From an uncultured Oscillospiraceae bacterium (lineage in GTDB: Bacteria > Bacillota > Clostridia > Oscillospirales > Oscillospiraceae): DNA of 52,834 nucleotides. Below, in pieces: positions 1 to 22,859 of the stretch (the first letter of the stretch is position 1; every line of letters begins with the position of its first letter). The DNA lies in assembly GCA_964411785.1 (NCBI GenBank), contig CAYPMJ010000001.1, forward strand, positions 1 through 52,834. Reading direction: 5' to 3'. Position numbers and translations under genes: made by a program. The notes below the pieces were generated by a model, which saw nothing but the letters and a program-made list of their open reading frames with translations, was not told the DNA's origin and made no database searches.

Positions 1-801
1 GGCCGTTGAATCCTTAAGCTCCACTCCGAAGACCTCCAGCTCCGTCAGTGCCGGGAACGGGCTGTCGTCCTGAGCCTTTTTAAGCTCCCTAAGCTCCAGC
101 CACTCCACTTCCCGCTGCTCCAGATGAAATGACTGCGGCGAGGCTGTCTTCACAGTATCCAGCCTCTCCACAGAGCCGTCACTGAAGAGCACAGTCACCT
201 GTTCCCACCAGCTGTCGTGGGGGAAATCCGCCCGTAATGTCAGCCGAATCTCGTCAACCAGCACCCTGCGGCCAAAGGAGAGGCGCAGCACCGCGTTCGG
301 ATCCCGGTTTATCCCCCAGCTCTCGTAAGGCCATGGGCCATGGGAGCTGTTCTCAAACACACCGTCTATCGCGTTTCTCGCGGCAAAGACCGCCTCGCCC
401 CGCGTCTCCACATTCGCCATGGCGTGTGGGAAGAAGCCATGCTCCCCGTGACAGTCATAGACGTTCCTCGCCAGGTCACGCCTGGCAGCTATCTCCTCAG
501 CTGAGGCAAAATGCGCCCGCAGAAGATGCCTTGAACCCGTAAAGCTCCTTGGAGAATAATTTGGTCTGTTATCTGCCGGCGGGATGGGGTAGTCCATTCT
601 GCTGCCAGGTATATAGACAAGCTCCGGCGGCAGTGTGTCCTCCAGCTGGATCACAAGGAAGCTCCCCTCCCTGTCCAGCTCCAGCACCACCCGATCCCCG
701 TCCTCATAGGGCTGATCCCAGAGAAAAGAGACCCGCTCCCCGGACCCGCTCTCCGCCAATGCTGTGCCCGCGGCGTTCTCAATTTTTATTGTAAGCTTCA
801 T
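1..801 (-). CDS. Partial CDS whose C-terminal end runs off the window. Hypothetical protein with a discoidin/F5-8-type-C-like beta-sandwich tail; the function is a guess.
   Basis: This ORF is absent from the supplied track because it has no stop in the window. The minus frame is open for 267 codons from the ATG at 801 to position 1 (MKLTIKIENAAGTALAE...WPYESWGINRDPNAVLRLSFGRRVLVDEIRLTLRADFPHDSWWEQVTVLFSDGSVERL...LTELEVFGVELKDSTA). Its ATG overlaps the upstream stop as ATGA (798-801). Codon usage matches the neighbouring genes. Confidence 0.6.
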   Translation of the reverse strand, partial: MKLTIKIENAAGTALAESGSGERVSFLWDQPYEDGDRVVLELDREGSFLVIQLEDTLPPELVYIPGSRMDYPIPPADNRPNYSPRSFTGSRHLLRAHFASAEEIAARRDLARNVYDCHGEHGFFPHAMANVETRGEAVFAARNAIDGVFENSSHGPWPYESWGINRDPNAVLRLSFGRRVLVDEIRLTLRADFPHDSWWEQVTVLFSDGSVERLDTVKTASPQSFHLEQREVEWLELRELKKAQDDSPFPALTELEVFGVELKDSTA

Positions 802-4855: not shown

Positions 4856-4876
4856 CTTTACCTCCTGAATTCATCT

Positions 4877-6370: not shown

Positions 6371-6400
6371 AACCTTCTCCTTGATTTAATTAAATGGGCG

Positions 6401-8128: not shown

Positions 8129-8196
8129 AAAATCTGTCCTTTTATACTCATCCATCGTATAAAAATCATTGTGGCTGCAACTTCTCCCAAATGAAG

Positions 8197-8225
8197 CAAA
8201 ATGGCCGCTGGAGGCGGCCATTTTG
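8197..8225 (-). terminator. Stem-loop immediately downstream of the SBP gene; intrinsic terminator or mRNA-stabilising hairpin
   Basis: A perfect 12-bp stem (CAAAATGGCCGC / GCGGCCATTTTG) closes a 5-nt loop. On the minus strand the GC core is followed by ATTTTGCTTCATTT. Confidence 0.6.
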
Positions 8226-8308
8226 CATCTGCAACCGGGCTGCGTTCCCGTAAGAATCTTCATCCCGCTGCAATTTTCAGTCAGAAACTTTCAAACCCCC
8301 GGGCTAAA

Positions 8309-9829
8309 TCAGCCGGCGTCCTCGTCAGTTACGTAGGTATCGATGAGCTCAGCCTCGTAGTCATAATCCTTCAGATCCTCGACAGCCTTGTCGATCTGCG
8401 ACTGATACGTCTCAAGAGCGGTGGCCGGCGTCATGCTGCCATTAGATACAGCGTCGAACATCGAGTTAACGGCACTGTTCAGGTCACTGAAGCCCTTAAT
8501 TGTATCAATCATCGACAGACCCTGAGATGTTATGTAGCTTACAAGCTCCACAGTCTCCTGATCGTCGCACCAGTTCTCAAGACGATCCTCAAGCAGCTCA
8601 TCCCACTCCTCGTCGGTGTCAGCAATGTCGGTGATCAGGTCATACATAAGAGCAACCTGGTCAGGATCCTCAACACCGTTCAGAATGAAGCGGGCGCCGA
8701 ACTCCTTGCCATAGCAGGACCAGTCAGTGGCGGACGGTCCCTTCGGGAACGGTACCCAGCCCCACTCATCGGACATCCCGGTATCCTCATCATTGAGATA
8801 GCTGTAGGAAATCCAGAACTCCTCAAGGCACATCATATACTTGCCGTCGCGGAAGTCCGTGATGAAGGAATCCCAGCTCTCAGTGGACCAGTCGATGGAT
8901 CCACGATATGTAACATTAGTAGTGAAGTCCTGAAGGGCTGTGAGCGCCTCCATAACCTTGGAATCGCTCAGGTCAACCTCAAGGCCGCTGTCGGTCTTTG
9001 TCGCCACATCCGCGCCGTTGGAGTAGATGTAGCACCAAGCAAGACTCTCGCGGGCGTTGAAGCCATAGATGGAGATGTTGCCGTCAGAATCGAGGATGTT
9101 CCCCTGCTGAGCAACCTCTTTGAACTTCTCCCATGTCCACTCGTCGTTCTCGACCAGCTCGTAAAGGTCAGGCAGACCGTAGCGGTCAAACAGTGTCTTG
9201 TTCCAGAAAATACCGTAGCGGATCTCAGGGTCCTTCATGAGCATCATGTACTGCTCGCCCTTGTAGGTACCAGCCTCAGTAACGTCGGAACGCCACTTGT
9301 ACTCTGAGAGGTCAAGAGCCTCACACTGGCTCAGAGGATAGGCTATGCCGCCCTCGATAAGGGACGGGAGCAGTCTGTAGGTCACAACATAACCGATGTC
9401 CACGATCGGATCTCCGGCAAGAACGCTCGTTACATACTCAGACATGTAGTCGCCGTCGATCTGCACAAACTCGATTGTGCAGTTGCACTTCTCCTCAACC
9501 TCCGCGATGCGGTTGGCAAGCGCCTCTTTAAGAGCACTCTCTGAGGGATCAGGGGTCATATCGTAGTAGCTGCCTATCTTGAAGACACGACCGCCGAAGT
9601 CAATTCCCTCAAGCTCGTCAACCTCTTCTTCTGTGTCGTTTCCAGTGCTGCTGTCGTTGTTTCCCGTGCTGCTGTCGTTGTTTCCAGTGCTGCTGTCGTT
9701 GTTTCCCGTGCTGCTGTCGTTGCCTGTGTCGCCATCTTCATCTGTTGTGCCTCCGCAGGCAGCCAGGGCAAAGAGCATAGCAAGACTCAGAACCAGGCAC
9801 ACCAGCTTTTTCAGGGTGTTCATTTTCAT
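8309..9829 (-). CDS. Sugar ABC transporter substrate-binding lipoprotein (family 1 SBP)
   Basis: The signal peptide and lipobox read MKMNTLKKLVCLVLSLAMLFALAAC-GG. I place the start at 9829, which has an AGGAGAGGTG SD site 6 nt upstream. The low-complexity linker (DSSTGNN)x4 is followed by an SBP-like body. Confidence 0.85.
   Translation of the reverse strand: MKMNTLKKLVCLVLSLAMLFALAACGGTTDEDGDTGNDSSTGNNDSSTGNNDSSTGNNDSSTGNDTEEEVDELEGIDFGGRVFKIGSYYDMTPDPSESALKEALANRIAEVEEKCNCTIEFVQIDGDYMSEYVTSVLAGDPIVDIGYVVTYRLLPSLIEGGIAYPLSQCEALDLSEYKWRSDVTEAGTYKGEQYMMLMKDPEIRYGIFWNKTLFDRYGLPDLYELVENDEWTWEKFKEVAQQGNILDSDGNISIYGFNARESLAWCYIYSNGADVATKTDSGLEVDLSDSKVMEALTALQDFTTNVTYRGSIDWSTESWDSFITDFRDGKYMMCLEEFWISYSYLNDEDTGMSDEWGWVPFPKGPSATDWSCYGKEFGARFILNGVEDPDQVALMYDLITDIADTDEEWDELLEDRLENWCDDQETVELVSYITSQGLSMIDTIKGFSDLNSAVNSMFDAVSNGSMTPATALETYQSQIDKAVEDLKDYDYEAELIDTYVTDEDAG
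9636..9727. repeat. About 4.3 copies of a 21-bp tandem repeat inside the SBP linker
   Basis: The unit GCTGCTGTCGTTGTTTCC(A/C)GT is repeated head to tail and encodes (DSSTGNN)n just after the lipobox cysteine. Confidence 0.85.
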
Positions 9830-9884: not shown

Positions 9885-9911
9885 GGCGGGTCTTTGCGGG
9901 AAAGACCCGCC
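9885..9911 (-). terminator. Intercistronic stem-loop between the permease and SBP genes; no adjacent U-tract, so more likely a processing or stability element than a terminator
   Basis: A perfect 11-bp stem (GGCGGGTCTTT / AAAGACCCGCC) closes a 5-nt loop within the 105-nt gap. Confidence 0.45.
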
Positions 9912-9934: not shown

Positions 9935-10897
9935 TCAGCCGACGATACCAGAGCGCTCAATTCCCTCAACGAAGTACCTCTGGCACACAAGGTACAGAAT
10001 GATCAGCGGCACCACGGCGAGAATTGTTCCGGTGTTGTTCATCATAGACACAAAGCCCGGACTTATGAAGTTCATGCTGCCGCCAAAGTTCGTGTACTCG
10101 TTGTAGACCTGTGCAGCCAGTGATGACAGGGACGTGGGTATGATCTCCATATTCTTCATGAACAGGGATGTGTAGAAGGAATCCGTCCAGGACCACACAA
10201 ACCCGAACAGGAAAATCGTAACCATCATAGGAACTGAACTTGGAACTATGATCTGAAGGAATGTCCTCAGCTTGCCGCAGCCGTCCATGAAAGCGGCCTC
10301 TTCGAGCTCCTTCGGCATGCCCTTGAAGAACTGACGGAGCATGTAGATGTAAAGTCCGTTCTTAAGGCCGGTGCAGGTAGCTGCCATGATGACCGAAGGC
10401 CAGATCGAGTTAAGCAGATTCACCGGATTCCCCTTGATCAGGGAGACAATACCGAAGACATCAAAGAACCTGAAGTTCATGAACAGCGGGAGCATGATGA
10501 TCTGGGGCGGGACAATCAGGGTAAGAATGACTGCCCCGAATAGAAGTCCTTTAAGCGGGAATCGGAACCGCGCGAAGCCATATGCCGTCAGCATGCAGCT
10601 GCAAAGCTGAAGGAACGCTATAATCGCAGATATTATTATCGTGCGGGGAAGCGATTCCGTATAATTCATGCCCTTTATGGCAAGCTTGTAGTTATCCAAC
10701 GTGAAATGCTTCGGAATGTACTGTACGCTGGAATCATAAAGATCACGCTCGCTCATGAACGAAACGCTGACCTTCAGAATGAGGGGCTGCAAAATTGTAA
10801 AGCAGATCCCGATCACTATAACTCCGCGAATGATGCTCCACAGAAAGCTCCCAAGTCTCGGGAGGGAAAAACTGCGTCTTCTCTTTGCGGTCTCCAT
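9935..10897 (-). CDS. Carbohydrate ABC transporter permease (MalG-like)
   Basis: It has six hydrophobic segments and an EAA-type loop (ELEEAAFMDGCGKLRTFLQIIVP). I place the start at ATG 10897 (METAKRRR...), which follows a GGAGGAGGGTG SD site. The ORF-track start at 10969 would overlap the upstream gene by 53 nt. Confidence 0.88.
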   Translation of the reverse strand: METAKRRRSFSLPRLGSFLWSIIRGVIVIGICFTILQPLILKVSVSFMSERDLYDSSVQYIPKHFTLDNYKLAIKGMNYTESLPRTIIISAIIAFLQLCSCMLTAYGFARFRFPLKGLLFGAVILTLIVPPQIIMLPLFMNFRFFDVFGIVSLIKGNPVNLLNSIWPSVIMAATCTGLKNGLYIYMLRQFFKGMPKELEEAAFMDGCGKLRTFLQIIVPSSVPMMVTIFLFGFVWSWTDSFYTSLFMKNMEIIPTSLSSLAAQVYNEYTNFGGSMNFISPGFVSMMNNTGTILAVVPLIILYLVCQRYFVEGIERSGIVG

Positions 10898-10916: not shown

Positions 10917-11861
10917 TTACGGCTCGTCGTTGTAGTAGACGTGCTTGGATATGATGCCGCCCACCACAAGCAGTATGACCACTATACATATGAAGTAAAT
11001 CCATGCCATGGCTGAGCCAAGGCCGTACTTGACCTCCGTGAAGATGGTGTCCTCGATCTCCGTCATGATCTCATTCGTCTCACTGATAAACGAATCTATG
11101 ATCGTATAGATGCTGTTCACCAGAATCAGGGGACTTATCATCGGAAACGTTATCTTCCAGAATGTCTCCCAGGCCGTCGCGCCCTCCATGGATGCGGACT
11201 CATAGAGGGACGGGCTTATGGACTGAAGTCCTGAGAGGAAGATAAGTATCTGAACGCCCGAGGCTATGATGATATCATACACCCCGTTTACGGCATTTGC
11301 AAGGAATAAAACCACGCTCTCAGGAAGGTCAGTGTAATTGAGGAGCAGACTCGCCACATTGTGCATGGTGGCCAGATCCGCCGCTGTCTCTCCGGTTGGG
11401 TTCAGTGTGGAGATCAGAAGGTCTGAGTTCTCAAGGCCAAGTATGACTCCGGAGGTAAGAATGACCGGGAAGAACAGTATGCTTCTCGCGGCAGCCCTGC
11501 CATGGAACTTCTGGTTAAGGATATTTGCCATGAAGAAACTGAATATCAGCACCAGCGGAACTGTTGTACACATGTCCACAATGGCGTTCAGCAGCATCTG
11601 GTTAAAGTCCGGATCTATGGTCAGCGCGCGGATGTAGTGCTCAAGTCCCCCGTTGGCCGCCTTTGTGAGCTCGTACCCATTGTCTCCGACCGTCATGTTG
11701 CTGAAGCTGAACTGAATGGACTTGAATATCATCGGAAGGAATATACCGATAAAGCCTATCAAAAACGGGAGAATGAAAGTGTAACCCGCGAGGGCGTTCC
11801 GCCCCATCAGCGTAAGGCGGGCCTTGCCATCGACTCTTTTTACATATCCGCGTTTATTCAT
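10917..11861 (-). CDS. Sugar ABC transporter permease (MalF-like)
   Basis: This is a polytopic 314-aa protein containing LYESASMEGATAWETFWKITFPM (EAA loop). Its start forms an ATGA overlap with the upstream stop (11858-11861). Confidence 0.88.
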   Translation of the reverse strand: MNKRGYVKRVDGKARLTLMGRNALAGYTFILPFLIGFIGIFLPMIFKSIQFSFSNMTVGDNGYELTKAANGGLEHYIRALTIDPDFNQMLLNAIVDMCTTVPLVLIFSFFMANILNQKFHGRAAARSILFFPVILTSGVILGLENSDLLISTLNPTGETAADLATMHNVASLLLNYTDLPESVVLFLANAVNGVYDIIIASGVQILIFLSGLQSISPSLYESASMEGATAWETFWKITFPMISPLILVNSIYTIIDSFISETNEIMTEIEDTIFTEVKYGLGSAMAWIYFICIVVILLVVGGIISKHVYYNDEP

Positions 11862-14470
11862 GCTTCCACCACCGCGAAGCTCCTGGCCGCCACCTGGACG
11901 CCGTCCACAACGACATCCTCGTGGGTGTAATTGACCAGTACCTGCGTTCCTTTCTCATAGGTCACGCGAACCACATCATCCGACACTATCTCATGATCCA
12001 CTATTGTCTGACTCTGCAGGGATCCAAGTGCCTCATTCACCGTCTTATAGTCCTCCAGCGCCCTGTCAATCCACGCGGAGTAATTCACGGAATAGAGGTT
12101 CTCAAAGTCGGTCTCCTTCATCACTGAGTTGTCCTCGTATATCCACTGGAAATAGAGGCCAGCTCCGGACTCAATGCTCTTCAGCAGCGTCGTCTGGTAG
12201 TCATCCGACATGTTGAGCATGTCGCCGGCGAACTCGATGTATCCATGGATCACCATCTCATAGAAGGGGACTGTCTCATCAATGATCCGGGTGCGGTTGG
12301 AATCCATCGGGGCGTTAATCATCTCGTTAACATTGCCCAGAATATACGCGTTCACATTGTCGCCCAGAACCATGCCCTCGAAGGAATTGTTCAGACGGTC
12401 AACAGCAGCCTGGTTGTAAAGAGCCGCCTGCTGCCTGTCTGTATACCGCTCCGTGAGCTGGTCCGTATACAGATTCCAGCTTATCGTGCCGAGGTTTATT
12501 CCCGCGTTCACGTTGGAGAGCTTCTTAATCACCTTCTGAGCCACGCTGTCCACAAAATATGGACTTATGAGGTCAATCTCCTGTTCGTCGTCACGCTTGT
12601 TGTTGGAGAGATAGTACACACCCTGGGTGACGTTTGAACGGTCAAAGTATTTCGGCGCGTTGCTCATGGGGGAGTAGCCGTCAAAAAGCCCGTCATCATA
12701 GACGTACTGAAGCTGAAGCGTCAGGAACGTGTCCACGTCCTTTGAGCTCATCTCCTCCAGGAACTCCTTCTGGCTCATCCCGCCCTGGTTTAGCTTCTTG
12801 AGACTTGAAAGGCTCGTATACGGCCCGCCGTGCAGACCGCCCTTGGCCCATCCTGAGTAAACCACGTTCAGGTTCTTTACTCCGCCGGATATCAGCTCAT
12901 CCACTATCTCAGAAGCCTCAGCATAGGTGGTGACGGGGACGACAGAACTGTATTTTACTCCCAGGAACGTTGCGTACGTGTCGATGGCTCCCAGCATCTC
13001 AGCGTAAAACGGCACGTCAGTGGCCTCCACGCGGTTTCCAAGCACACCGTTGTCAAGCAGATACGTCCTGTATCCGTTCGCCATGCCCGCGTAGGTTGCG
13101 GCTCCCCCGTTGAGGAAGGAGAAACGCAGCCTATAACGACCGCTGAAGCCCGCCTCAGAGTACATCTGGAAGCTGTTCGAACCAACCATTCCGGTAAGCG
13201 AACTCTCGCCATACTCCAGGTACTGAAAGCTCGGATAAACTGAGTTGTAGCTTGTCAGCGTTCCGGAGACCGTTGCGTTCACAGACGCATAAGCGTCGCC
13301 GTCGTCTATAATGCAATACCACGCCGTATCCCCGGACTTAAGTCCGAACACAGGCATCTTTATGGTCAGATTCTGATCCACCTCCGACTGGCTCTCTAGG
13401 AGTGCGTTCATGGTGGCGTCCGTCCCATAGACCATGGCGCTATATGTATAGGTGCTGCCATTGTTGAGATTTATAAGTGCGCCGCACCCGTCAGGGACGA
13501 ATATATATCCTTCCTCATCAGTGCCAGCCGCCCCGAAAAACGGCATCAGTGAAACGGTCGTAAGGTAGTACCCGTCCGTGTTGTATACTATGGAATCAGG
13601 ATCCACCTCCACCATCAGGTTCTCCCCTGACAGGCGGTACGTCATCGGGACGTCAAACCACGCGCTGGTGTCCTCGGTGGAGTAGCCGTTCTCAGTGAGG
13701 TCGTAGTCGAGATCCTCCTCCGTGTAGCCGGCCTCCGCCAGGTACTCCGCCAGCTGATCTCTGATGTAGTCCTTGACGCTCGACCTTATGATATAGATCG
13801 GGAAATCTGCCAGGCTCGGATATGTCTCAAGATACTCCTTGTAATCGGCCTCGCTCAGTTCGTCCTTGTCAAGCTTCGTATAGTTGCGCAGAAGCTTCTT
13901 GGAATCAGATGAGTCCAGCCTCGAAGCAAACTCCTCCAGCCTCTCCACACTTATCACCTCAGGCAGAATCCGCTGTGATCCCGCGGTGCCCAGATGATAG
14001 AGGATGCTGACTCCATCCGTCAGATACTGAATCTCAAACGCCCCGTATTGTACTGAGTCGCTGTAATTGTCCATCAGATTTAGCTGGACCGACTCATTAT
14101 AATACTGGAGCTGTATCTGAGACTTAAGCTGACGGCGGTTGTAGTCGGAAGCTATGGGATCATCCTCCGCGTCGGGGGGATTTGAGTACCAGACATCCCC
14201 GGTAGCCTTCACTACAACAGCGACATCCGTCTCCTCCTCATCTATATACATGGCAAGGGAATCGTTCTCTGCCACCCACGTCATGTCACCAAGGCCCGGC
14301 TGCGCCGCCCTCTCCTCGTCCGTCATTGTTGAGGGGCTGTAATCGTCCTCCTTGTACAGCGCTGTCGCAGCCGGCGTATCAGCCGATGCATTCTGGGAGA
14401 CGCTCAGAGAGACGAGAAGCGCAGTCATCAGCAGCAGTGCCGTGACGCGAAGAACCCGTTTTTTCTTCAT
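11858..14470 (-). CDS. Secreted 870-aa protein of unknown function, DUF5696-like (assignment from memory)
   Basis: The signal peptide is MKKKRVLRVTALLLMTALLVSLSVSQNASA. A strong GGGAGGGGAAG SD site is present. The C-terminal half alternates beta and alpha segments (VPFYAEMLGAID, NLNVVYSGWAKGG, LTLQLQYVY, VPFYEMVIHGYIEF), which is compatible with a TIM-barrel glycosidase-like fold. I recognise no catalytic motif. Confidence 0.7.
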   Translation of the reverse strand: MKKKRVLRVTALLLMTALLVSLSVSQNASADTPAATALYKEDDYSPSTMTDEERAAQPGLGDMTWVAENDSLAMYIDEEETDVAVVVKATGDVWYSNPPDAEDDPIASDYNRRQLKSQIQLQYYNESVQLNLMDNYSDSVQYGAFEIQYLTDGVSILYHLGTAGSQRILPEVISVERLEEFASRLDSSDSKKLLRNYTKLDKDELSEADYKEYLETYPSLADFPIYIIRSSVKDYIRDQLAEYLAEAGYTEEDLDYDLTENGYSTEDTSAWFDVPMTYRLSGENLMVEVDPDSIVYNTDGYYLTTVSLMPFFGAAGTDEEGYIFVPDGCGALINLNNGSTYTYSAMVYGTDATMNALLESQSEVDQNLTIKMPVFGLKSGDTAWYCIIDDGDAYASVNATVSGTLTSYNSVYPSFQYLEYGESSLTGMVGSNSFQMYSEAGFSGRYRLRFSFLNGGAATYAGMANGYRTYLLDNGVLGNRVEATDVPFYAEMLGAIDTYATFLGVKYSSVVPVTTYAEASEIVDELISGGVKNLNVVYSGWAKGGLHGGPYTSLSSLKKLNQGGMSQKEFLEEMSSKDVDTFLTLQLQYVYDDGLFDGYSPMSNAPKYFDRSNVTQGVYYLSNNKRDDEQEIDLISPYFVDSVAQKVIKKLSNVNAGINLGTISWNLYTDQLTERYTDRQQAALYNQAAVDRLNNSFEGMVLGDNVNAYILGNVNEMINAPMDSNRTRIIDETVPFYEMVIHGYIEFAGDMLNMSDDYQTTLLKSIESGAGLYFQWIYEDNSVMKETDFENLYSVNYSAWIDRALEDYKTVNEALGSLQSQTIVDHEIVSDDVVRVTYEKGTQVLVNYTHEDVVVDGVQVAARSFAVVEA

Positions 14471-14485
14471 TCTCTTCCCCTCCCT

Positions 14486-15103
14486 CTAAAACCTGATCTC
14501 GCGGTAGATGGTAATCACGAAGTTCACCATCTGCTCTATCACGTTGAAGAACAGCAAGCCGATGAAAATGATAATTGCCATGCCCAGGATCGTACACAGC
14601 ACGGTCAGCACGGTCTTCTTGAAGGAATACTGATGTGTTACCATTGTCCCGAAAAAGACCAGGAACCCCGTCCAGATGTAGCTGAAGACATCGAAAATGT
14701 AGTAGAATGCCGCCTCATCCTGGGTAATGACCAGCGAGAGCAGAACCATCGGAAACCGAATCAGTATCAGCGGAAGAAGCGAGTATCCTGTCGCTATAAA
14801 GATATCCCGCATACCGCCCTCGCCGTCCATCAGCGAGGTCAGGCACCAGTTCGATACGCACCACAGGACATATATCATTCCCACCGTCAGGATGTCCACA
14901 ACCACGTTCACGTCAGACAGCCGAACCTCGTTGAAGAGGAACCCGGTCATCTGCTTCTGGAAGGTGATCAGGAAAACCGTAATGGCAACGAAGGTCAGCG
15001 CCGCGCGCAGCGACCCCCGGTGCTCCCTTTTCAGGTCCCAGTAGCCGTCGAAGGGATGAAAAATAACATGTAAGCCATATTTCAGTTCTTTGACATAACC
15101 CAT
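14486..15103 (-). CDS. Yip1-family integral membrane protein
   Basis: About five TM segments follow an N-terminal MGYVKELKYGLHVIFHPFDGYWDLKREHRGS, which is the typical Yip1-domain layout. I place the start at 15103, which has a GGAGGGAGAAAG SD site. It overlaps the end of the upstream gene by 22 nt. Confidence 0.7.
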   Translation of the reverse strand: MGYVKELKYGLHVIFHPFDGYWDLKREHRGSLRAALTFVAITVFLITFQKQMTGFLFNEVRLSDVNVVVDILTVGMIYVLWCVSNWCLTSLMDGEGGMRDIFIATGYSLLPLILIRFPMVLLSLVITQDEAAFYYIFDVFSYIWTGFLVFFGTMVTHQYSFKKTVLTVLCTILGMAIIIFIGLLFFNVIEQMVNFVITIYREIRF

Positions 15104-16581
15104 TTTACTTTCTCCCTCCATCTCCTGAATTTACCCACATAGGTGATGACCAGCGGAATCAGAACAGCCACCGCTATCACCGCCATGATCGTCCCGAAAT
15201 GGTCCTCCATCAGCTCCTTCCTGTAGTAATACAGCGCCTTGGAGTAGTACTTCCTGTTGTTCCCGTTCTTGAAATACTCCATGGCCGTCTTGTAATCTCC
15301 CTCAGCCAGGTAGTTCTTTCCAAGTCCGGTGTAGGCAAACTCGCTGTTGCTGTTCAGCCGCAGCACCTCTTTCCAGGCGGCAATGGACCCGTCCGAGTCG
15401 CCCTTGTCATTAAGGCGCAGTGCGGAGAGAAGGTAGTTGCCGTAGTCAGTCAGACTGTAGACGAGGATGCTGTTCAGCTGGTAGTCCAGTATGTAGAGCT
15501 CCGAGGCGTCCTCGTTGATCCCGAGAGCCACGGCGTTCTGGACGTTGCCCTCCCTGTTTCCCTTCCGCCCGAAGGCAAACAGTGAGTTACCGTCGTAATC
15601 GTACCCGAAAACCTTTCCGTTGGCGTTGTCCAGCAGGAAATAGCAGCCGTAGTCCGTCGCCGCCACATCAACAAAGGATGAGAAGTCTCCGTCGGTACTT
15701 GAATAGAGGTCTCCGGTTATATCGTAGTTGCCCAGACGGCGAAGTATGTCATCGCCGGTGGGGTTCAGCCTCCGGACCATGTCGCCGCCGTTCATTGCGT
15801 CCTCCGCGGTCAGGTTGCTTATGGTCGCGTAGATGAAATTGTCGCTGTCCACGAATATGTTGCTGTACTCGGTGGGGATGATGGTCGCCATACGAGCCTT
15901 CTGCTCATCAGTCGAGAAATAGTTCTTCCAGATATACTCAAATGTCGATACAGTCACCTTCGCAGCACCCATAAATGTCTGGAAGACACCGGCAGAGGAG
16001 AACTCAAGAAGTCCCATGTTGATTCCGTATGCCGTCACGTAAATCCGTCCGTCGTTATCCACCACAACCTTCTGCGGTGTGTAGACCACCGAGTCGTCAA
16101 TCAGGTCTGTCTCCGGCCGGCCTATCTCGCGTATAAACGTGCCGTCCACGTCGTACTCGACGAGCCGCCCGTTGCCGCTGTCCGCCACGTAGATGTGTCC
16201 CTCCTCCGTGACAAACACTCCCTGCGGCTTGCTAAGAGTGTCGCTCTCATCTCTCCCGCTTGTTATGATGAGGAGCGTCTCCTGCTTTTCGTTTGTCTTA
16301 ATAATACGGGAGTTGCCCGTGTCCGCGATGTAAAAATAACCATCCTTAACAAACATATCCTGAGGATTCTTAAGCGGCTCGTCCTTGAAGGTCAGCGTCT
16401 CCTCATAGATATATACGTGAGGCTGCGCCACGTCCTCCCCGTAGTAGTTATAGCTGTAGGTGTCGTAGGGCATATCCGCCAGGGCTGTCCCCGCGGATGT
16501 GAGCGCCAGTCCTCCCGCCATAATCAGCGCGGCGAAAACAGATCTGGCTCTCCTGCCTCGGTTCTTCTTCACTGAATCCAT
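15082..16581 (-). CDS. Membrane-anchored NHL-repeat beta-propeller / TPR protein
   Basis: It has an N-terminal signal peptide (…LTSAGTALA-DM), NHL-type repeats (YIADTGNSRII, YVADSGNGRLVEYD), a TPR-like segment (YTGLGKNYLAEGDYKTAMEYFKNG) and a C-terminal TM anchor (IMAVIAVAVLIPLVITYV). I place the start at ATG 16581, 7 nt downstream of a GAGGAGGG SD site. Confidence 0.78.
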   Translation of the reverse strand: MDSVKKNRGRRARSVFAALIMAGGLALTSAGTALADMPYDTYSYNYYGEDVAQPHVYIYEETLTFKDEPLKNPQDMFVKDGYFYIADTGNSRIIKTNEKQETLLIITSGRDESDTLSKPQGVFVTEEGHIYVADSGNGRLVEYDVDGTFIREIGRPETDLIDDSVVYTPQKVVVDNDGRIYVTAYGINMGLLEFSSAGVFQTFMGAAKVTVSTFEYIWKNYFSTDEQKARMATIIPTEYSNIFVDSDNFIYATISNLTAEDAMNGGDMVRRLNPTGDDILRRLGNYDITGDLYSSTDGDFSSFVDVAATDYGCYFLLDNANGKVFGYDYDGNSLFAFGRKGNREGNVQNAVALGINEDASELYILDYQLNSILVYSLTDYGNYLLSALRLNDKGDSDGSIAAWKEVLRLNSNSEFAYTGLGKNYLAEGDYKTAMEYFKNGNNRKYYSKALYYYRKELMEDHFGTIMAVIAVAVLIPLVITYVGKFRRWREKVKWVMSKN

Positions 16582-16594
16582 TCGCACGCCCTCC

Positions 16595-17449
16595 TCACTC
16601 TTTGATACCGGAGGATACCATCGTCTCGATGATATTGCTCTGGCACAGCATGAAAATTGTGATCGGGACGATCATCATGATAACAGACACTGCCGCCGTT
16701 GCTCCGGCCCTTGAAATACCGGCTGCGGAAATCTGTGACAGCGCGTAGGGCAGAGTCTTCAGCTCCTCGCTGTAGATGTATGTGGAGCCCTGCAGGTTCC
16801 ACAGGTCCTGGAAGCAGAAAATGATAAGCGTCAGCCAGGCGGGTTTCACGCTGGGCATGATGATGGTCCGGAAGATCTTAACCTCACCTGCTCCGTCAAG
16901 TCTCGCCGCCTCTATGAGGGAATCGGGGATCTGCTCCATGAACTGCTTCATGAGGAAGAGTCCCATCGGCTTCCCGATAGCGGGAACTATCAGCGACAGG
17001 TAGGTATCCAGCCAGTTCAGCTTCGACATAATGAGGTAGTTCGGTATCGCCGTAACCTGTGAGGAGAACATCAGCGCGGTCACTATGAACCAGAAGATGA
17101 TGTTCCGGCCGGGGAACTTGTGCTTCGCCAGGGCGTACGCGGCAAGGCTTGCAACTATCACGTGGCCCAGCGTACCGCACACCGTAATAAGCACCGTGTT
17201 AAAGATGTACCGGCTGAACGGCACCCACGACTCGCTCATCAGAACGAACACATCATGGTAGTTGGAGGTGGTCGGGTTGCGCACGAAGAAGCGCGGCGGG
17301 AACATGAACAGCTCCTCCAGCGGCTTCAGGGAGTTGCAGACGGCCAGGACCAGCGGCATTCCCATGAACGCGCCCATCACCACAAGGATGAAAATGCTGA
17401 ACGCATTACCCACCATGGAGTGGCTCTGTTTCGCTCTTCTCTTTGCCAT
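16595..17449 (-). CDS. Carbohydrate ABC transporter permease (MalG-like)
   Basis: 284 aa and polytopic, with the EAA loop LIEAARLDGAGEVKIFRTIIMP. There is a 1-nt gap to the upstream stop and an AAAGGTGGGA SD site. Confidence 0.9.
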   Translation of the reverse strand: MAKRRAKQSHSMVGNAFSIFILVVMGAFMGMPLVLAVCNSLKPLEELFMFPPRFFVRNPTTSNYHDVFVLMSESWVPFSRYIFNTVLITVCGTLGHVIVASLAAYALAKHKFPGRNIIFWFIVTALMFSSQVTAIPNYLIMSKLNWLDTYLSLIVPAIGKPMGLFLMKQFMEQIPDSLIEAARLDGAGEVKIFRTIIMPSVKPAWLTLIIFCFQDLWNLQGSTYIYSEELKTLPYALSQISAAGISRAGATAAVSVIMMIVPITIFMLCQSNIIETMVSSGIKE

Positions 17450-17450
17450 A

Positions 17451-18455
17451 TTACTGTCCCACCTTTCTGAGCAGCGCCTGAACGAGCTTATTGCACAGGA
17501 TCATGACCAGGAACAGCAGCGTTGCAATTGCGGATGCGTAGCCCATCTCAAATCGGATAGTACCGTAATCTATAAGGTGGGAGACCACCGTATGGGCTGC
17601 GTAGTTTACACTCGGGAACCCCGCCAGCGCGGCCAGCTGATCATGTATCCCGAAGGAGCTCGTGATGGTCATCACAGCGCCGAACATCAGCTGCGGCTTC
17701 ATCGATGGGAGAGTGATATACCACAGCTCCTGGAAACGGTTCGATATTCCGTCGATGTAGCCCGCCTCGTACAGCGTCTGATCCACATTCTGCAAGCCGG
17801 CTATGAATGAGAGGAACCCGGTGCCCATACTCATCCACAGCACCACTATAATCAGAATTGGCGCTATGTACGTCTCGTCCTCCAGCCAGAGGATCGGGCT
17901 GTAGGTAATTCCCAGCTTCATCAGCCACGCGTTTGCGAAGCCGTAGCTGTCGCTGGCGAAGATGTACTTCCAGACGATATACGCCTGGCCGGAAATCGTC
18001 GGCGCGTAGAAGAGCAGCGTCATGAACGCGCGGATCTTCTTATTCTGGATGTCGTTGATCATCCACGCGATGAAAAGCGCCATGAAGTACCCCACAGGCC
18101 CCGTTATCACCGCGAACATGAACGTATTCTTCACGGCCTTCAGGAAGACCTCGTCAGCGAAGAAGAGGTTCACGTAGTTCTGCCAGCCCACAAAGCGCGG
18201 CGGCTCAAGCACGTTGAAGTTCGTAAAGCTGTAGTACATCGACATGAGAACCGGCAGCAGGATGAACACTGCGAATATCAGGCAGTACGGCAGAATAAAG
18301 AGGTAGGAAACGCCATGTCTCTTCATCTCGCTCCATGTGTGCGCCAGTCTCCTCTTAGCGTACCTTGTGTAGATTGACCCCCCGGGGCCCGGCTGGGCCA
18401 CGCTGACGGCAGCGTCACTCTCAAGAAGAGCTGTGGAGCTTTTATTTTCTTTCAC
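17451..18455 (-). CDS. Sugar ABC transporter permease (MalF-like)
   Basis: The protein is polytopic and contains YLFILPYCLIFAVFILLPVLMSMYYSFTNF. I prefer a GTG start at 18455, 6 nt after a GAGGAGGTG SD site. The ORF-track ATG at 18494 lies inside the upstream gene. Confidence 0.82.
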   Translation of the reverse strand: MKENKSSTALLESDAAVSVAQPGPGGSIYTRYAKRRLAHTWSEMKRHGVSYLFILPYCLIFAVFILLPVLMSMYYSFTNFNVLEPPRFVGWQNYVNLFFADEVFLKAVKNTFMFAVITGPVGYFMALFIAWMINDIQNKKIRAFMTLLFYAPTISGQAYIVWKYIFASDSYGFANAWLMKLGITYSPILWLEDETYIAPILIIVVLWMSMGTGFLSFIAGLQNVDQTLYEAGYIDGISNRFQELWYITLPSMKPQLMFGAVMTITSSFGIHDQLAALAGFPSVNYAAHTVVSHLIDYGTIRFEMGYASAIATLLFLVMILCNKLVQALLRKVGQ

Positions 18456-18468
18456 CGTCTGCACCTCC

Positions 18469-21378
18469 TCAGTCCATAGCAAGGTTGAATTCAAGCCGCT
18501 TGCGCTCTATCTCGTAGTCGATCTGCTTCACGTAATCCTGAAGTGTCTCACGCGGATCCTCGTTATTGTTATAGACAGTATAGAACGCGTTGCGGATATG
18601 CCGCTCCGTGAAATAACCGCCTGGTACCTGCGGAAGCGCCTTCACCCACTCAAGCTGCGCAATCAGCTGTCTGTAATCCGTGCTTGCCCACGGCAGACTC
18701 TGCAGTGCCTCAAGGTTTGAGGTCGCCACACGTCCTGAAACTCCCAGGACATTTTCTATCTCGTTGCCGTACTCGGTCTGTGTCTCGGCGCTCATCCACC
18801 ACTTGAGGAATTCCCAACCGTTTGCCTGCTGGTCGCTGGTCGCCATGATAATGCATGCCGTTTCCCAGGCGGAAACCGAGTGGTCAATGGTGCCGTCCTC
18901 TCTCTCATAGCCCGGGACAACCGTAAAGCCCCAGTCGCCCTTTATCTCGGGAGCGAAAACAGACAGATAGTTATATTGCGTGTAGTCAGCGATAGCCAGC
19001 GGCATTTCGCCTGTGCGGAACCGGTTTGCCATATCAAAGGTCACCGGCATTCCATAGTTCACATAGTTTCCGGTCCACTGCTTGAAGGCAGCCACAGCCT
19101 CCTCAGAATCAAGTGCGCTGTGCTGCGAGTCCTCCGTGTAATACTGCCCACCGTGCTGATAGAGGAACATTGCGTATGTAGTCCAGTCCGGAGTAATACC
19201 AACGTTCATGTTGTTCTTCTGGATCACGGCCAGCGCCTGATAGAACTCATCCCAGGTGCGCGGCACCTCAAGTCCCAGCTCATCCAGAATGTCGGCACGG
19301 TAGAACATCACATGGAAGGACATTGTCTGCGGCAGTGCGTACACTCCGCCCTCCAGCGTAAACTGCTGCATGGCCTCTTCAAAGAACCAGCCGGACACCT
19401 CCTCAAAGTCGTCAAACTGAGTGAGGTCCACCACGGCGTGGCGCAGGGCGTAGTTCAGCGGTTCCTTCCCGTCCACGTTAAGCGCGACATCAGGTCCCTC
19501 GCCCGCAAGAGTAGCGGAAAGAAGCACGTCGCGGTTTACCAGCTTCACGTTCACCGGAATGTTGCTTGACGGAACGAAGTAGTTGTCAACCAGGGTCTTT
19601 ATTACATTTGCCTGATCACGTCCTCCTCCGCTGGATGTGGTTGACGTGCTGTCGGCAAGAATCCAGACCTCCAACGTCTCGGTGCCCTCGTCATACACTT
19701 CGCCTATGCTGTTGTAGTCCTCCACAAAGCTCGCGAAGAACTGTTTCATCTCATGCGCCAGGGAGGCGAAGAAGCCGGCCTTTACCTTCGGAGTCTCCGC
19801 ACCCTCGCCGCAGATCAGCATATAGTCTATCTCCAGCGGCTGCTCACTCATTGTCAGTGTCCATGAGCTGAGGGACACGATATTGTCCTTGAATGCGGAC
19901 CACTGCTTCGCAATGGACGAAGGCTTGGCCGTCATTTTCTCAAGCTGGTTTATCAGGTTGTCAATGGCCTGAGTCGCAGTGCCGCCCCGCCCCTGCGAGT
20001 AATCGTCCACCATTTCCTTGAGGTTTGAGATGACGACATACTGCTCAGCGAGGGTCTGAAGCGCACCGGGGGTCTTAAGCTCCAGCTGGTAATCGCGCAT
20101 CGTATCCGGGGAGCTGCCGATGACCATGAGAAGCTGCCGGTAGGCCTCGTTCAGCTTGTCTACCGCCCCGCTGGCAACCGAGAGAATCTCGGCGAGCTCT
20201 GTCCCAAGGCTGACCTCAAGCCTCAGCTCATGGGTCCCTGCCGTGAGATAGAACCAGTAGGGCTCCTCCCCGTCGCCCAGAACGGAGAGCTGCCAGTTGT
20301 TCTCGTAGAAGAAGTACAGCTCCTCTGCCTCCTGGAACGGGACCTCACCGTCTATCTGGAGTGACCGGCAGACGGTAACGCCGGTGTTCTGATTCTGGCG
20401 GTACTTTATCATTATCTGGTAAAGTCCGTCCTCCGGAACTTCTATTTCCCATTCTATCCACTGTCCCACAAGCTTCCAGTTTTCCCCGCCGATCGTGTTG
20501 AGCCTCGTCTTCGACGCGTTGTACGGCTCAGTCAGCGGCGATGTGCGGTCTGAGATGGGATACAAAGTGGAATTGGATTTGAGCGTCGCGGCCTCGCCCT
20601 GAATCTTGATGGACTCAACGGCGCTCGACGACACCTTTGTCCGACCGGCGGACTCATTTGCCGCACTGTACTCGGCATAGGTCGGCAGCTCCTCCTCCTG
20701 GGTAAGCACAAGCTCACCTATCACCATCGGCTCCTTGACAGAGGTGAACGTGATAGTGTTCTTGCCCTTCTCGAAATAGTACTGGAGCGCCCCAGTCACA
20801 TAGCCGTCGCTGTCCTTCAGCCATGAGGTCACCCATCTCGGAACCTCTACCTGGTTGGGACGCACGTCGTTGCCTCTGGAATCCTGCTCCACAGTCTCAA
20901 CAGCACTGGTCCACACACGCGTGAACTGAATGTCCTGAGACTCCTCAAAGGGAAGCTCCCCGTTGATGAAGACCTGTCTTTCAATGTCGTTGTTCTTGCC
21001 CTCGACGGGGTAGTAGGTCAGCTGCAGCTGGTAGAGACCCGTCTCCGGGATGTCCACCTCGTAGGTAACAGAGCCTTCCTCCAGGGTTAAAAGGCTCTCC
21101 CCCGCGCGTCCCTCATAGTCGGAGAGGACTTCAAAATCTTCCGAAGCCTCAAGGTAATCCCCGCCGGATATAACTATCTCATCCGTCGGGCGGGCGGCGT
21201 CCGCGTGAGCCTGCAAATACGCGCTGTAGCTCTCCGCATCGTAAACCATGGAGCTCAGGTCAATCGGTTCAGGCTCTGAGGCTGCCTTGGACATGCCTGA
21301 ACCCATTGAGACACAGCTTACCAGGATCAGAGCCACCATCACTGCGATCATGGCTCCCCGCCCAAAACGCTCTCTCAT
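18469..21378 (-). CDS. Giant (969-aa) extracellular solute-binding lipoprotein with two N-terminal CBM6/35-like modules
   Basis: I place the start at ATG 21378, preceded by a GAGAGGGGGAA SD site. The lipobox is LILVS-C. An internal duplication is visible (GLYQLQLTYYPVEGKNNDIERQVFINGELPFEE versus GLYQIMIKYRQNQNTGVTVCRSLQIDGEVPFQE). A helical linker follows, and the C-terminal roughly 420 aa look like a family-1 SBP. Confidence 0.82.
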   Translation of the reverse strand: MRERFGRGAMIAVMVALILVSCVSMGSGMSKAASEPEPIDLSSMVYDAESYSAYLQAHADAARPTDEIVISGGDYLEASEDFEVLSDYEGRAGESLLTLEEGSVTYEVDIPETGLYQLQLTYYPVEGKNNDIERQVFINGELPFEESQDIQFTRVWTSAVETVEQDSRGNDVRPNQVEVPRWVTSWLKDSDGYVTGALQYYFEKGKNTITFTSVKEPMVIGELVLTQEEELPTYAEYSAANESAGRTKVSSSAVESIKIQGEAATLKSNSTLYPISDRTSPLTEPYNASKTRLNTIGGENWKLVGQWIEWEIEVPEDGLYQIMIKYRQNQNTGVTVCRSLQIDGEVPFQEAEELYFFYENNWQLSVLGDGEEPYWFYLTAGTHELRLEVSLGTELAEILSVASGAVDKLNEAYRQLLMVIGSSPDTMRDYQLELKTPGALQTLAEQYVVISNLKEMVDDYSQGRGGTATQAIDNLINQLEKMTAKPSSIAKQWSAFKDNIVSLSSWTLTMSEQPLEIDYMLICGEGAETPKVKAGFFASLAHEMKQFFASFVEDYNSIGEVYDEGTETLEVWILADSTSTTSSGGGRDQANVIKTLVDNYFVPSSNIPVNVKLVNRDVLLSATLAGEGPDVALNVDGKEPLNYALRHAVVDLTQFDDFEEVSGWFFEEAMQQFTLEGGVYALPQTMSFHVMFYRADILDELGLEVPRTWDEFYQALAVIQKNNMNVGITPDWTTYAMFLYQHGGQYYTEDSQHSALDSEEAVAAFKQWTGNYVNYGMPVTFDMANRFRTGEMPLAIADYTQYNYLSVFAPEIKGDWGFTVVPGYEREDGTIDHSVSAWETACIIMATSDQQANGWEFLKWWMSAETQTEYGNEIENVLGVSGRVATSNLEALQSLPWASTDYRQLIAQLEWVKALPQVPGGYFTERHIRNAFYTVYNNNEDPRETLQDYVKQIDYEIERKRLEFNLAMD

Positions 21379-21610: not shown

Positions 21611-21639
21611 ATTATAACGCGTCGTTCATCCTTTGTCAA
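21611..21639 (-). promoter_or_regulatory. Consensus sigma-A promoter for the 14-gene glycan operon
   Basis: The minus strand reads TTGACA, 17 nt, TATAAT. The -35 element is at 21634-21639 and the -10 at 21611-21616. The predicted 5' UTR is about 225 nt. Confidence 0.6.
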
Positions 21640-21647
21640 TATAATCA

Positions 21648-21661
21648 TGTAACCGGTTACT
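21648..21661. promoter_or_regulatory. cre / LacI-family operator-like palindrome
   Basis: ATGTAACCGGTTACT contains the perfect 12-bp palindrome GTAACCGGTTAC and fits the cre consensus WTGNAANCGNWNNCW at every position. It sits 9 nt upstream of the -35 element. Confidence 0.5.
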
Positions 21662-21756: not shown

Positions 21757-21790
21757 CAAAATTCCGCCCGGCGCCATGTTCACCGGGCGG
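21757..21790 (-). terminator. Intrinsic terminator downstream of the LacI-family gene
   Basis: An 8-bp GC stem (CCGCCCGG / CCGGGCGG) is followed on the minus strand by AATTTTG. Confidence 0.5.
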
Positions 21791-21824
21791 AAAAAATATT
21801 AAGAATTGTTAAGCTGCGCTCCGG

Positions 21825-22859
21825 TCATGCAGGCGCTTTCCCGGAGCTCTTCCGCACCTTTAAGCGGGGCGTGATCCACTGCAGATCCGGCACCCTCTCT
21901 CCCTCGATGGCCGCGACAGCTGTCTCCACGAGAGTCTTTCCGAACAGCGGGTACTGGTAGTCCACGCTTGTGAGCGGAGGATCCTGCATCCGCACAAGCT
22001 CCGTGTTATCGTAGCTCACCAGCGATATGTCGTCCGGAATCTCAAATTCATGCTCTCTCAGGCTCTGGCGTATCCCCATAGCAGCATAATCGTTTATGGC
22101 GATGACGGCTGTGGGGCGAAGTCCTTTTTCAAATATCTCATTCATGCATCTGTAGCCGGATGAGAAGTTATAGCTCCCCTCCGCCACAAGCTCCTGCCGG
22201 AACGGTATGCCGCGCTTTTCAAGCATCTCCCTGTAGCATGCGCGTTTCTGGAACGTGGAGTAGACATCGGCCCGTCCGCCGACCATGGCTATGTCCGTGT
22301 GTCCCAGCTCAAGCAGGTGCTCCATCAGCAGCTGTGTGCAGCGGATGTGGTCGATGCACACCCTCAGTGCACCGGTGCCGTCAAGCTTCCCCGTGACCAC
22401 CAGCGGTATATCGCCCAGCATCTGACTGACGCTTGAGGCATAGTCCTCATCCGTATGAAGCTCATCTGGACTGCCGCCTATCTGTATGACGGCCTCCGTC
22501 CGCTGACCCAGAAATTTCTCAAGCTGCCGGATCTCCTGTCCACGGCTGTTCATGGTATTGCCCAGCAGCACAGTGTAGCCCATGGTATCGGCGGCCTCCT
22601 CGCAGGCCACGAACATCTCAGCGTAGTAGGGGTTGCGCACATCCGCCGTAAGTATCCCGATAGTCTTGCTCCTGGCGTCCGAAAGGCCCCTTGCAAGGGC
22701 GTTCGGGCGAAAGCCGTACTTTGCAACCAGGGAGAGGACCTTCTCCCGCTTCTCCCTGCTGACGCTGGCACTGCCTGACAATACGCGAGACACCGTAGCG
22801 GTTGAGACGCCGGCCTCCTGGGCTATATCATAGATTGTTACTGTCCTTTTATCCTTCAT
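21825..22859 (-). CDS. LacI-family transcriptional regulator
   Basis: The N-terminal helix-turn-helix is VTIYDIAQEAGVSTATVSRVLSG, and the periplasmic-binding-protein-like core contains TIGILTADVRNPYY. Confidence 0.95.
   Translation of the reverse strand: MKDKRTVTIYDIAQEAGVSTATVSRVLSGSASVSREKREKVLSLVAKYGFRPNALARGLSDARSKTIGILTADVRNPYYAEMFVACEEAADTMGYTVLLGNTMNSRGQEIRQLEKFLGQRTEAVIQIGGSPDELHTDEDYASSVSQMLGDIPLVVTGKLDGTGALRVCIDHIRCTQLLMEHLLELGHTDIAMVGGRADVYSTFQKRACYREMLEKRGIPFRQELVAEGSYNFSSGYRCMNEIFEKGLRPTAVIAINDYAAMGIRQSLREHEFEIPDDISLVSYDNTELVRMQDPPLTSVDYQYPLFGKTLVETAVAAIEGERVPDLQWITPRLKVRKSSGKAPA

Follow-up and report, generated by a model that had tools for sequence, protein, structure and literature searches.

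A conserved nine-gene cassette of Bacillota combines genes for two sugar ABC importers with an NHL-Yip1 pair and a distant relative of GH129/GH101 glycosidases

We analysed a stretch of 52,834 nucleotides (nt), hereafter the window, from an uncultured Oscillospiraceae bacterium (GenBank assembly GCA_964411785.1, contig CAYPMJ010000001.1, positions 1 to 52,834). Nine genes of the window, all on the minus strand, form a cassette that encodes two ATP-binding cassette (ABC) importer modules, A and B, and a trio of accessory proteins between them: an NHL/TPR protein, a Yip1 protein and a DUF5696 protein. The genes were defined from the listing of open reading frames (ORFs), Pfam scans and direct reading of the junctions, and are given here in the order of transcription (SBP, substrate-binding protein; aa, amino acids), followed by the signals found around them.

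18469-21378, minus strand: giant SBP, 969 aa
17451-18455, minus strand: permease A1, BPD_transp_1, GTG start behind GGAGG
16595-17449, minus strand: permease A2, BPD_transp_1
15082-16587, minus strand: NHL/TPR protein, 501 aa (GTG start) or 499 aa (ATG start)
14486-15121 or 14486-15103, minus strand: Yip1 protein, 211 or 205 aa
11858-14470, minus strand: DUF5696 protein, 870 aa
10917-11861, minus strand: permease B1, BPD_transp_1
9935-10897, minus strand: permease B2, BPD_transp_1, start behind GGGGAGGAGGG
8309-9829, minus strand: second SBP, about 506 aa, lipoprotein, SBP_bac_1
21825-22859, minus strand: LacI-family repressor gene upstream of the cassette (Pfam LacI and Peripla_BP_1/3)
21762-21792: terminator of the LacI gene (terminator scan)
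21649-21660, minus strand: palindrome GTAACCGGTTAC, immediately upstream of the -35 box
21611-21639, minus strand: promoter TTGACA-17-TATAAT (promoter scan, 12/12 matches)
9886-9910, minus strand: GC-rich stem-loop of 10 bp, GCGGGTCTTT-CCCGC-AAAGACCCGC, in the gap between permease B2 and the second SBP
8196-8226, minus strand: intrinsic terminator at the operon end, 13-bp stem and T-run, after the second SBP gene

Since the promoter lies ahead of the giant SBP gene and the terminator at 8196-8226 behind the second SBP gene, the nine genes constitute one operon. The initial annotation had drawn the unit at 11858-21378, limits that proved too narrow, as the operon extends 3.5 kb past the lower coordinate, down to 8309. 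On the other hand, the trio does lie between two importers as that annotation had it, and the protein sizes, the 22-nt overlap, the 15-nt spacing and the Shine-Dalgarno site that it gave were all recovered when the ORFs and junctions were read. Specifically, the second ATG of the Yip1 gene (15103) stands behind GGAGG and creates the 22-nt overlap with the stop of the NHL gene, the DUF5696 gene starts 15 nt past the Yip1 stop with the Shine-Dalgarno sequence AGGGAGGGG in front, and an ATGA is common to the DUF5696 stop and the permease B1 start. The palindrome GTAACCGGTTAC is a candidate LacI operator. The stem-loop at 9886-9910, which was absent from the terminator scan output, may determine how much SBP transcript is made relative to permease transcript.

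The DUF5696 protein is a distant relative of the glycoside hydrolase (GH) families GH129 and GH101. It matched the Pfam family DUF5696 (PF18952) with 603.2 bits (cut-off 25.6) at residues 255-865, covering model positions 5-612 of 612, whereas a sequence search against Protein Data Bank (PDB) chains returned no match and neither Glyco_hydro_129 nor Glyco_hydro_101 matched it in Pfam up to E 10. The hydrophobicity scan placed a single hydrophobic segment at its N-terminus, in keeping with a cleavable-type signal peptide, and most of its homologues carry AXA-type cleavage motifs and no anchor. The AlphaFold2 model (pLDDT 89.4, pTM 0.85) comprises an N-terminal beta-sandwich with a helical insert, a (beta/alpha)8 barrel and a C-terminal beta-sandwich. 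With this model, Foldseek retrieved the GH129-like 3,6-anhydro-D-galactosidase of Zobellia (5OPQ/8RZK; E 9e-29, target TM-score 0.69) and the alpha-N-acetylgalactosaminidase NagBb of Bifidobacterium bifidum (5wzn-5wzr; about E 1e-22), the target TM-scores for GH129 being 0.69-0.73, followed by GH101 (E 1e-13) and, more weakly, GH36 and GH31. Homology was also detected at the profile level, where the DUF5696 family profile reached the ZgGH129 sequence at 1e-6 and NagBb at 1e-3. In addition, we rebuilt a NagBb-like protein (84% identity to NagBb over one fragment) from a frameshifted contig, L081 470-2368, in which junction errors are possible. Hhalign aligned the DUF5696 family with this protein over the barrel and the C-terminal domain (probability 97%, E 1e-10), and in Pfam the same protein scored higher with DUF5696 (60 bits, cut-off 25.6) than with Glyco_hydro_101 (37) or Glyco_hydro_129 (30). 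As its top Pfam match is DUF5696, DUF5696 belongs to the GH129/GH101 superfamily. The statement in the initial annotation that the trio lacks any catalytic motif thus has to be revised, given the GH129/GH101 fold and the detectable GH129 sequence homology of its third member.

The likeness to the characterised GH129 enzymes, NagBb (5WZN) and the Zobellia enzyme DagB/ZGAL_3152 (5OPQ, 8RZK), consists of the same three-domain fold, the profile-level homology, an acidic residue within four positions of the column that hhalign pairs with the nucleophile, and an N-terminus collinear with that of DagB. The differences are also considerable: identity is only 12-13%, about 200 residues are extra, including the helical insert, and the acid/base position of NagBb is not conserved. 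Moreover, DUF5696 proteins are secreted, whereas NagBb is cytoplasmic, and they are always embedded in a cassette, whereas the NagBb-like gene of L081 lies outside any. The family comprises 7,014 clusters (50% identity, E <=1e-3), or 4,099 at E <=1e-30. As a NagBb-like protein scores best with it, the Pfam label of unknown function conceals a characterised enzyme family. Metagenomic 'GH129' calls may include cassette proteins, for which degradation of mucin or carrageenan is not implied.

In order to describe the distribution of the cassette, we scanned GTDB genomes, one for each species, with an alignment of 66 DUF5696 homologues. Relatives were found in at least 596 genome stretches, the best 80 of which were examined for the cassette. 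The order in these 80 loci was giant SBP, A1, A2, NHL, Yip1, DUF5696, B1 and B2, with the second SBP last in Clostridia and ahead of the giant SBP in Paenibacillaceae, and all nine genes were present in 58 out of 59 loci with sufficient flank. This near-invariant synteny spans Lachnospiraceae, Oscillospiraceae, Paenibacillaceae and Bacillaceae, that is, two classes of Bacillota; the cassette was found too in Gracilibacillus and on plasmid pNP243 of Butyrivibrio fibrisolvens D1, where the RefSeq product names of the trio go no further than 'NHL repeat-containing', 'YIP1 family' and 'DUF5696 domain-containing'. Cohnella luojiensis and Paenibacillus harenae carry two cassettes per genome. The neighbourhood survey therefore verified the co-occurrence of giant SBP, Yip1 and DUF5696 genes that the initial annotation had put forward. 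Its proposal that the trio works with the transporters gained support from the synteny and from the co-divergence of the nine proteins, whose pairwise distances correlate with r 0.80-0.96, the top pair being NHL and DUF5696 (r 0.96, partial r 0.83).

Two variants informed on the make-up of the cassette. In L076 (7529-14803) module A is absent and a fused NHL-Yip1 gene, DUF5696 and B1/B2 are retained, while L084 (6473-20026) has a permuted order in which the trio and module B precede module A. B1 invariably adjoins DUF5696 downstream, in these two loci as well. They indicate that the trio travels with the B permeases and that module A is a separable block. A third variant, L086, is a divergent cassette on the Paenibacillus cellulosilyticus plasmid NZ_CP054609.1 (1663-21816), which has a UgpC-type ATPase gene directly upstream, a fused NHL-Yip1 gene and a DUF5696 protein of 757 aa without the helical insert. 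Downstream of it lie at least four genes for YtnJ/MoxC-like LLM flavin monooxygenases, together with an NADPH oxidoreductase, an aldo/keto reductase and extra SBPs. This gene context means that the platform is not strictly bound to hemicellulose, and suggests an organosulfur-type or otherwise different substrate.

We then considered the residues on which catalysis by DUF5696 could depend. In NagBb, Asp435 is the nucleophile and Glu478 the acid/base. Hhalign pairs Asp435 with DUF5696 column 666, and four residues further, after the predicted barrel strand 657-660, stands the nearly invariant Asp670. Residues were counted in 81 sequences (the 80 loci and the window) and in the 66 alignment rows. 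Asp670 is missing from 6 of the 81 sequences and 4 of the 66 rows, every one of which carries Asp or Glu at 666, and neither set holds a sequence without an acid at both positions. Since the sequences lacking Asp670 have an acid at 666, the pattern suggests that a carboxylate is required in the 666-670 loop, although the shift probably represents two or three independent events only. The other conserved acids are Asp257 (in the helical insert), Asp327, Asp351, Asp731 and Glu767; Asp327, Asp351, Asp670 and Glu767 are retained in the L086 outlier, which is 28% identical. Asp704 was dropped as an acid/base because its column is variable, and Asp731 and Glu767 are candidates only. Judged from these residues, DUF5696 is likely to be catalytically competent. 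Of the two characterised enzymes it is reported that only Asp435 of NagBb has a conserved counterpart in the Zobellia enzyme (Asp486), that the acid/base differs, and that the Zobellia enzyme requires Glu517, Glu531 and Asp202, Asp202 being donated by a helix of the partner monomer (PMC5698469).

The remaining members of the trio proved to be a propeller protein and a membrane protein. The NHL protein scored 51.6 bits with Pfam NHL (cut-off 20), matched the DUF5128 and SGL propeller families too, and resembled the Pizza, TRIM71 and PknD propellers among PDB chains (E 1e-27 to 1e-12). The domain labels of the initial annotation accordingly stood for DUF5696, Yip1 and NHL, all above their Pfam cut-offs, and in part for TPR: TPR_11, TPR_2 and TPR_12 remained below the cut-offs, while residues 394-442 resembled consensus-TPR PDB chains at about 1e-13 to 1e-10. 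The signal peptide, C-terminal anchor and roughly five membrane segments that it had described agreed with the hydrophobicity scan, in which the NHL protein showed an N-terminal signal segment and a single C-terminal transmembrane segment (467-485), and the Yip1 protein several hydrophobic peaks compatible with about five transmembrane segments. The latter matched Pfam Yip1 (PF04893) with 54.8 bits (cut-off 28.6) over model positions 2-171 of 173. In 8 of the 80 loci (L023, L042, L043, L057, L061, L062, L076 and L079) NHL and Yip1 form a single ORF, and these eight fused polypeptides span both proteins nearly end to end. With further fusions in L084 and L086 the total rises to 10 loci, which speaks for NHL and Yip1 being one functional unit. 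The cassette has no counterpart of the membrane-fusion protein, exporter permease or dedicated ATPase of a YknWXYZ-type exporter, and its permeases are all of the importer type BPD_transp_1 in Pfam.

Both modules fit a CUT1-like importer: each has a binding protein that matches SBP_bac_1 and a pair of BPD_transp_1 permeases, and a gene for a MalK-type ATPase lies elsewhere in the window. In the giant SBP, Pfam matches to SBP_bac_1/8 are confined to residues 617-872. Its AlphaFold2 model (pLDDT 76) consists of two beta-sandwich domains (about 68-226 and 257-390), long helices packed into a bundle (393-511) and an SBP fold (515-969). Foldseek aligned this fold with oligosaccharide SBPs over about 410-445 columns (about E 1e-15 to 1e-12), relatives that bind sophoro-oligosaccharides, maltodextrin, cycloisomalto-oligosaccharides, cellodextrins and manno-oligosaccharides; among the 50 Foldseek matches listed, only the SBP part was matched, not the sandwiches or the helical bundle. 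Some homologues gave weak matches to CBM_35 or Golvesin_C. Lipoboxes were read in both binding proteins, LVSC in the giant and LAAC in the second. The linker past the second lipobox (about 9637-9730, minus strand) holds about four tandem TGNNDSS copies, a low-complexity tether. At another locus, L039 (10498-18090), four full-length paralogues of the second SBP and two shorter pieces stand in tandem behind one cassette, which points to the use of several binding proteins by module B.

The absence of an ATPase gene, which the initial annotation had noted for the two importers, was dropped as a peculiarity when a stand-alone gene was found in the window, and the divergent L086 cassette has its UgpC-type gene adjoining.

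39499-40602, minus strand: MalK/MsmX-type ABC ATPase, stand-alone, ABC_tran and OB_MalK, 18 kb from the cassette

ATPases of the MsmX/MsmK type are shared among the sugar importers of Firmicutes, and importer loci without their own ATPase are normal. The product of this gene likely energises the cassette permeases, and it probably serves several sugar importers of the genome.

The surroundings of the cassette pointed to its substrates. The ORFs on either side of the cassette (about 5-8 kb of flank) were clustered for the 80 loci and representatives were scanned with Pfam, and a neighbour-joining tree of DUF5696 was built. A Paenibacillaceae clade forms a xylan class, with GH10, GH43 (some with CBM6) and esterases downstream on the same strand and AraC regulators. 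Another Paenibacillaceae clade forms a mannan class, with GH26-CBM35, GH113, GH2 beta-mannosidase-like and GDSL proteins and LacI regulators. A Lachnospiraceae clade with GH53 represents a beta-1,4-galactan class, and the neighbours of a further Lachnospiraceae clade, a GH43 of 738 aa and GH35, are the closest to those of the window. Smaller groups of the tree have GH38/GH35 or GH106 neighbours. Many loci of Lachnospiraceae and of the mannan class have a LacI gene ahead of the cassette. Identities within and between the xylan and mannan classes, for Paenibacillaceae only, were as follows.

Second SBP: 62% within, 32% between
DUF5696: 57% within, 36% between
NHL: 63% within, 42% between
Yip1: 67% within, 47% between
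Permease B1: 71% within, 49% between
Permease B2: 75% within, 53% between
Giant SBP: 70% within, 50% between
Permease A1: 80% within, 73% between
Permease A2: 84% within, 70% between

The second SBP and DUF5696 are the most class-specific components, as they have the lowest between-class identities (32% and 36%), and permeases A1 and A2 are among the most conserved across substrate classes. The idea that the SBP of module A is indifferent to substrate was weakened by its own figures of 70% within and 50% between classes, residues 421-480 in the helical region being the most divergent.

In the window, the cassette is followed by a set of exo-glycosidase genes.

798-8128, minus strand: genes for GH35 beta-galactosidase, GH51 arabinofuranosidase, GH2 beta-glucuronidase and GH78-type rhamnosidase (Pfam, PDB)

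Among their PDB matches were a beta-glucuronidase (E 1e-252) and rhamnosidase B (E 6e-50), and a GH42 beta-galactosidase is also encoded near the cassette (Pfam). When the N-termini of the GH35, GH42, GH51, GH2 and GH78-type products of the window were read, none had a signal peptide-like start. With LacI, two importers, GH35, GH51, GH2, GH78 and GH42, the region has the pattern of a Gram-positive polysaccharide utilisation locus. From the set of sugars that these enzymes address, the substrate in the window is most likely type II arabinogalactan or a gum-arabic-like glycan, and the arabinogalactan guess of the initial annotation fits the flanking enzymes. In the GH35 ORF the first ATG (8263) falls ahead of the operon terminator at 8196-8226; the true start of this ORF is probably the ATG at codon 46 (MSRFVIGK...), at 8128.

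The reading that we favour, with a probability of about 0.5, is that the cassette encodes a Gram-positive polysaccharide-uptake platform, in which a membrane-held GH129-like enzyme would feed two ABC importers. The products of one LacI-controlled nine-gene operon would all be extracytoplasmic or membrane proteins. Module A would be composed of the giant lipoprotein SBP, which may bear a carbohydrate-binding module (CBM; a weak assignment), and A1 and A2, and module B of B1, B2 and the second lipoprotein SBP, and a shared MalK/MsmX-type ATPase would power both in trans. The NHL propeller-TPR-transmembrane protein and Yip1 would form one membrane unit holding the secreted DUF5696 protein at the cell surface. 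This anchoring is proposed because most DUF5696 homologues lack an anchor, the NHL protein carries one with its TPR next to the membrane, and the two are the pair with the tightest co-divergence. As a putative retaining-type glycosidase or transglycosylase of the GH129/GH101 superfamily, DUF5696 would trim or cleave the captured glycan into oligosaccharides for the importers, and neighbouring cytoplasmic exo-glycosidases would complete the breakdown. Paralogous cassettes elsewhere would serve xylan, mannan and beta-1,4-galactan.

Several observations weigh against this platform. Secreted endo-enzymes (GH26-CBM35, GH53) are already encoded at several loci, so DUF5696 need not be a depolymerase. 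The relatives GH129, GH101, GH36 and GH31 cut alpha-linkages, while the polysaccharides linked to the cassette have beta-linked backbones. No acid/base residue could be picked out in the DUF5696 alignment: the position of NagBb Glu478 is not conserved, column 704 being D/E/S/T/N/A by clade and 705 N/G, and Asp731 is missing from a few sequences. The L086 cassette is linked to YtnJ/MoxC-type monooxygenases, with glycosidases absent there. Finally, all nine proteins co-diverge, so that the mirror-tree signal is weak for specific contacts. We also entertain, more tentatively, a stronger form in which the nine proteins are one surface machine, a Gram-positive analogue of the utilisomes of Bacteroidota, with the NHL-TPR-Yip1 unit docking a GH129-derived subunit and the giant SBP onto both importers. 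Capture, processing and import of a polysaccharide chain would then be a single coupled step, and duplicates of the machine would have been adapted to xylan, mannan, galactan and arabinogalactan, and even to organosulfur-linked substrates.

The main rival to an enzyme-fed platform holds that DUF5696 is a glycosidase-derived, non-catalytic subunit for glycan binding or gating, and that the trio is a structural adaptor joining both importers and their SBPs in one complex at the surface while other enzymes depolymerise. We regard it as rather unlikely, although the unconserved acid/base position, the clade-variable Asp731 and Asp704 columns, the tie of the cassette to chemically diverse glycans and even a non-glycosidase context, and the secreted GH26-CBM35 and GH53 enzymes beside many cassettes all speak for it, and TPR, propeller and Yip1 are typical of interaction or scaffold modules. 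A lost active site is nevertheless difficult to reconcile with the carboxylate at 670 or 666 in all sequences examined, which amounts to a compensating shift, with Asp327, Asp351 and Glu767 kept in 28%-identical L086, or with the window itself, where no other secreted glycosidase gene adjoins the cassette. Besides, as the acid/base differs between NagBb and DagB (PMC5698469), its absence at the NagBb position tells little. Less probable again is a narrower form of the uptake platform, in which DUF5696 would be an extracellular alpha-debranching enzyme that simplifies oligosaccharides before import, removing alpha-glucuronosyl or alpha-arabinosyl groups from xylan, alpha-galactosyl groups from mannan and alpha-linked decorations from arabinogalactan. 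It would suit structural relatives that are all alpha-glycosidases and class-specific residues (666, 678, 704) that lie in or just past the predicted barrel strands 657-660 and 701-704. The genes that recur within about 8 kb of xylan and mannan cassettes included no GH67/GH115 or GH27/GH36, but the surveyed flank of about 5-8 kb leaves room for debranching enzymes elsewhere in the genome. Against the proposal stands also the cytoplasmic GH51 arabinofuranosidase that the window encodes.

That the trio merely shares the operon and acts apart from uptake, in remodelling of the envelope or of the cell's own exopolysaccharide or in sensing, is in our judgement quite improbable. NHL propellers are known in sensor kinases such as PknD, and YknW, a member of the Yip1 family in Bacillus subtilis, supports the work of an ABC exporter; however, Pfam revealed no cytoplasmic signalling domain, exporter-type component or glycosyltransferase in the cassette, the trio always accompanies the B permeases in about 85 loci, and its divergence follows that of the neighbouring catabolic enzymes. 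An ordinary enzyme gene beside membrane-protein genes by chance, an arrangement that the initial annotation would have accepted given a match to a characterised glycosidase and no conserved synteny, is refuted by the synteny and retains virtually no probability. The match exists only distantly and the synteny is plain, with 58/59 loci complete and the order kept across two Bacillota classes; in addition, NHL-Yip1 fusions exist and the reading frames are translationally coupled.

Gram-positive loci in which CUT1-type importers share MsmX/MsmK include the mannan systems of Roseburia and Faecalibacterium and LplABC/YesOPQ of Bacillus subtilis. The cassette resembles them in having a regulator, a lipoprotein SBP, a BPD_transp_1 pair, glycosidases nearby and an ATPase elsewhere, and differs in its fixed importer pair, its 969-aa SBP with two beta-sandwiches and a helical bundle, and its three conserved accessory proteins, which we know of in no described locus. 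With the SusC/SusD utilisomes of Bacteroidota it shares a conserved transport core, interchangeable substrate-specific enzymes and SBPs, and the possibility of several paralogues per genome. There is, however, no homology between them, and single-membrane ABC importers stand against a TonB-dependent outer-membrane barrel. YknW of Bacillus subtilis, of the Yip1 family, accompanies the ABC transporter YknXYZ. Similarly, the cassette encodes a Yip1-domain membrane protein together with an ABC transporter, which it presumably assists. In contrast, YknXYZ functions as an exporter and includes a membrane-fusion protein and a dedicated ATPase; the cassette encodes binding-protein-dependent importers, and the gene for its Yip1 protein is coupled to that for an NHL-TPR ectodomain or fused with it.

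In the literature searched we found no mention of DUF5696, PF18952 or the cassette, in agreement with the initial annotation, which had put the trio forward as an undescribed system, and a September 2026 review of bacterial glycoside transporters mentions neither Yip1 and NHL nor accessory proteins. The types of component (ABC importer, glycosidase superfamily, propeller, TPR and Yip1) are known, and it is the fixed nine-gene assembly and the trio that are undescribed in that literature. The carriers, rumen and gut Lachnospiraceae and soil Paenibacillaceae, are major degraders of plant fibre, and three of the nine cassette proteins have no assigned role. If they do form a physical complex, it would account for the way in which Gram-positive bacteria, which have no outer membrane, link the capture and processing of glycans at the surface to their import, and would add accessory subunits to the textbook ABC importer. 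The link of DUF5696 to GH129/GH101 offers an immediate hypothesis for enzyme assays, and the class-specific paralogues constitute a natural experiment on the determinants of specificity.

Several other genes of the window deserve mention. Close to the cassette, 29069-32632 (minus strand) encodes a secreted protein of 1187 aa with Alginate_lyase2 (PL7-like), Big_2 repeats and C-terminal SLH domains, which looks like a cell-wall-anchored lyase-like enzyme. The regions 34695-38554 and 41661-45749 (minus strand) encode proteins of the Heparinase II/III-like and DUF4962 types and, after these, two further permeases and a 720-aa protein that had no Pfam match; they may be another uptake locus, for uronate glycans. 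A type II/IV secretion ATPase (T2SSE and MshEN; 25432-27114, plus strand) probably belongs to a type IV pilus or competence system. The genes at 46414-52079 (minus strand) specify a Ser/Thr kinase, whose ectodomain is of the BspA-type leucine-rich repeat and DUF5050 kinds, and after it a PP2C phosphatase and an FHA-trypsin-like protease.

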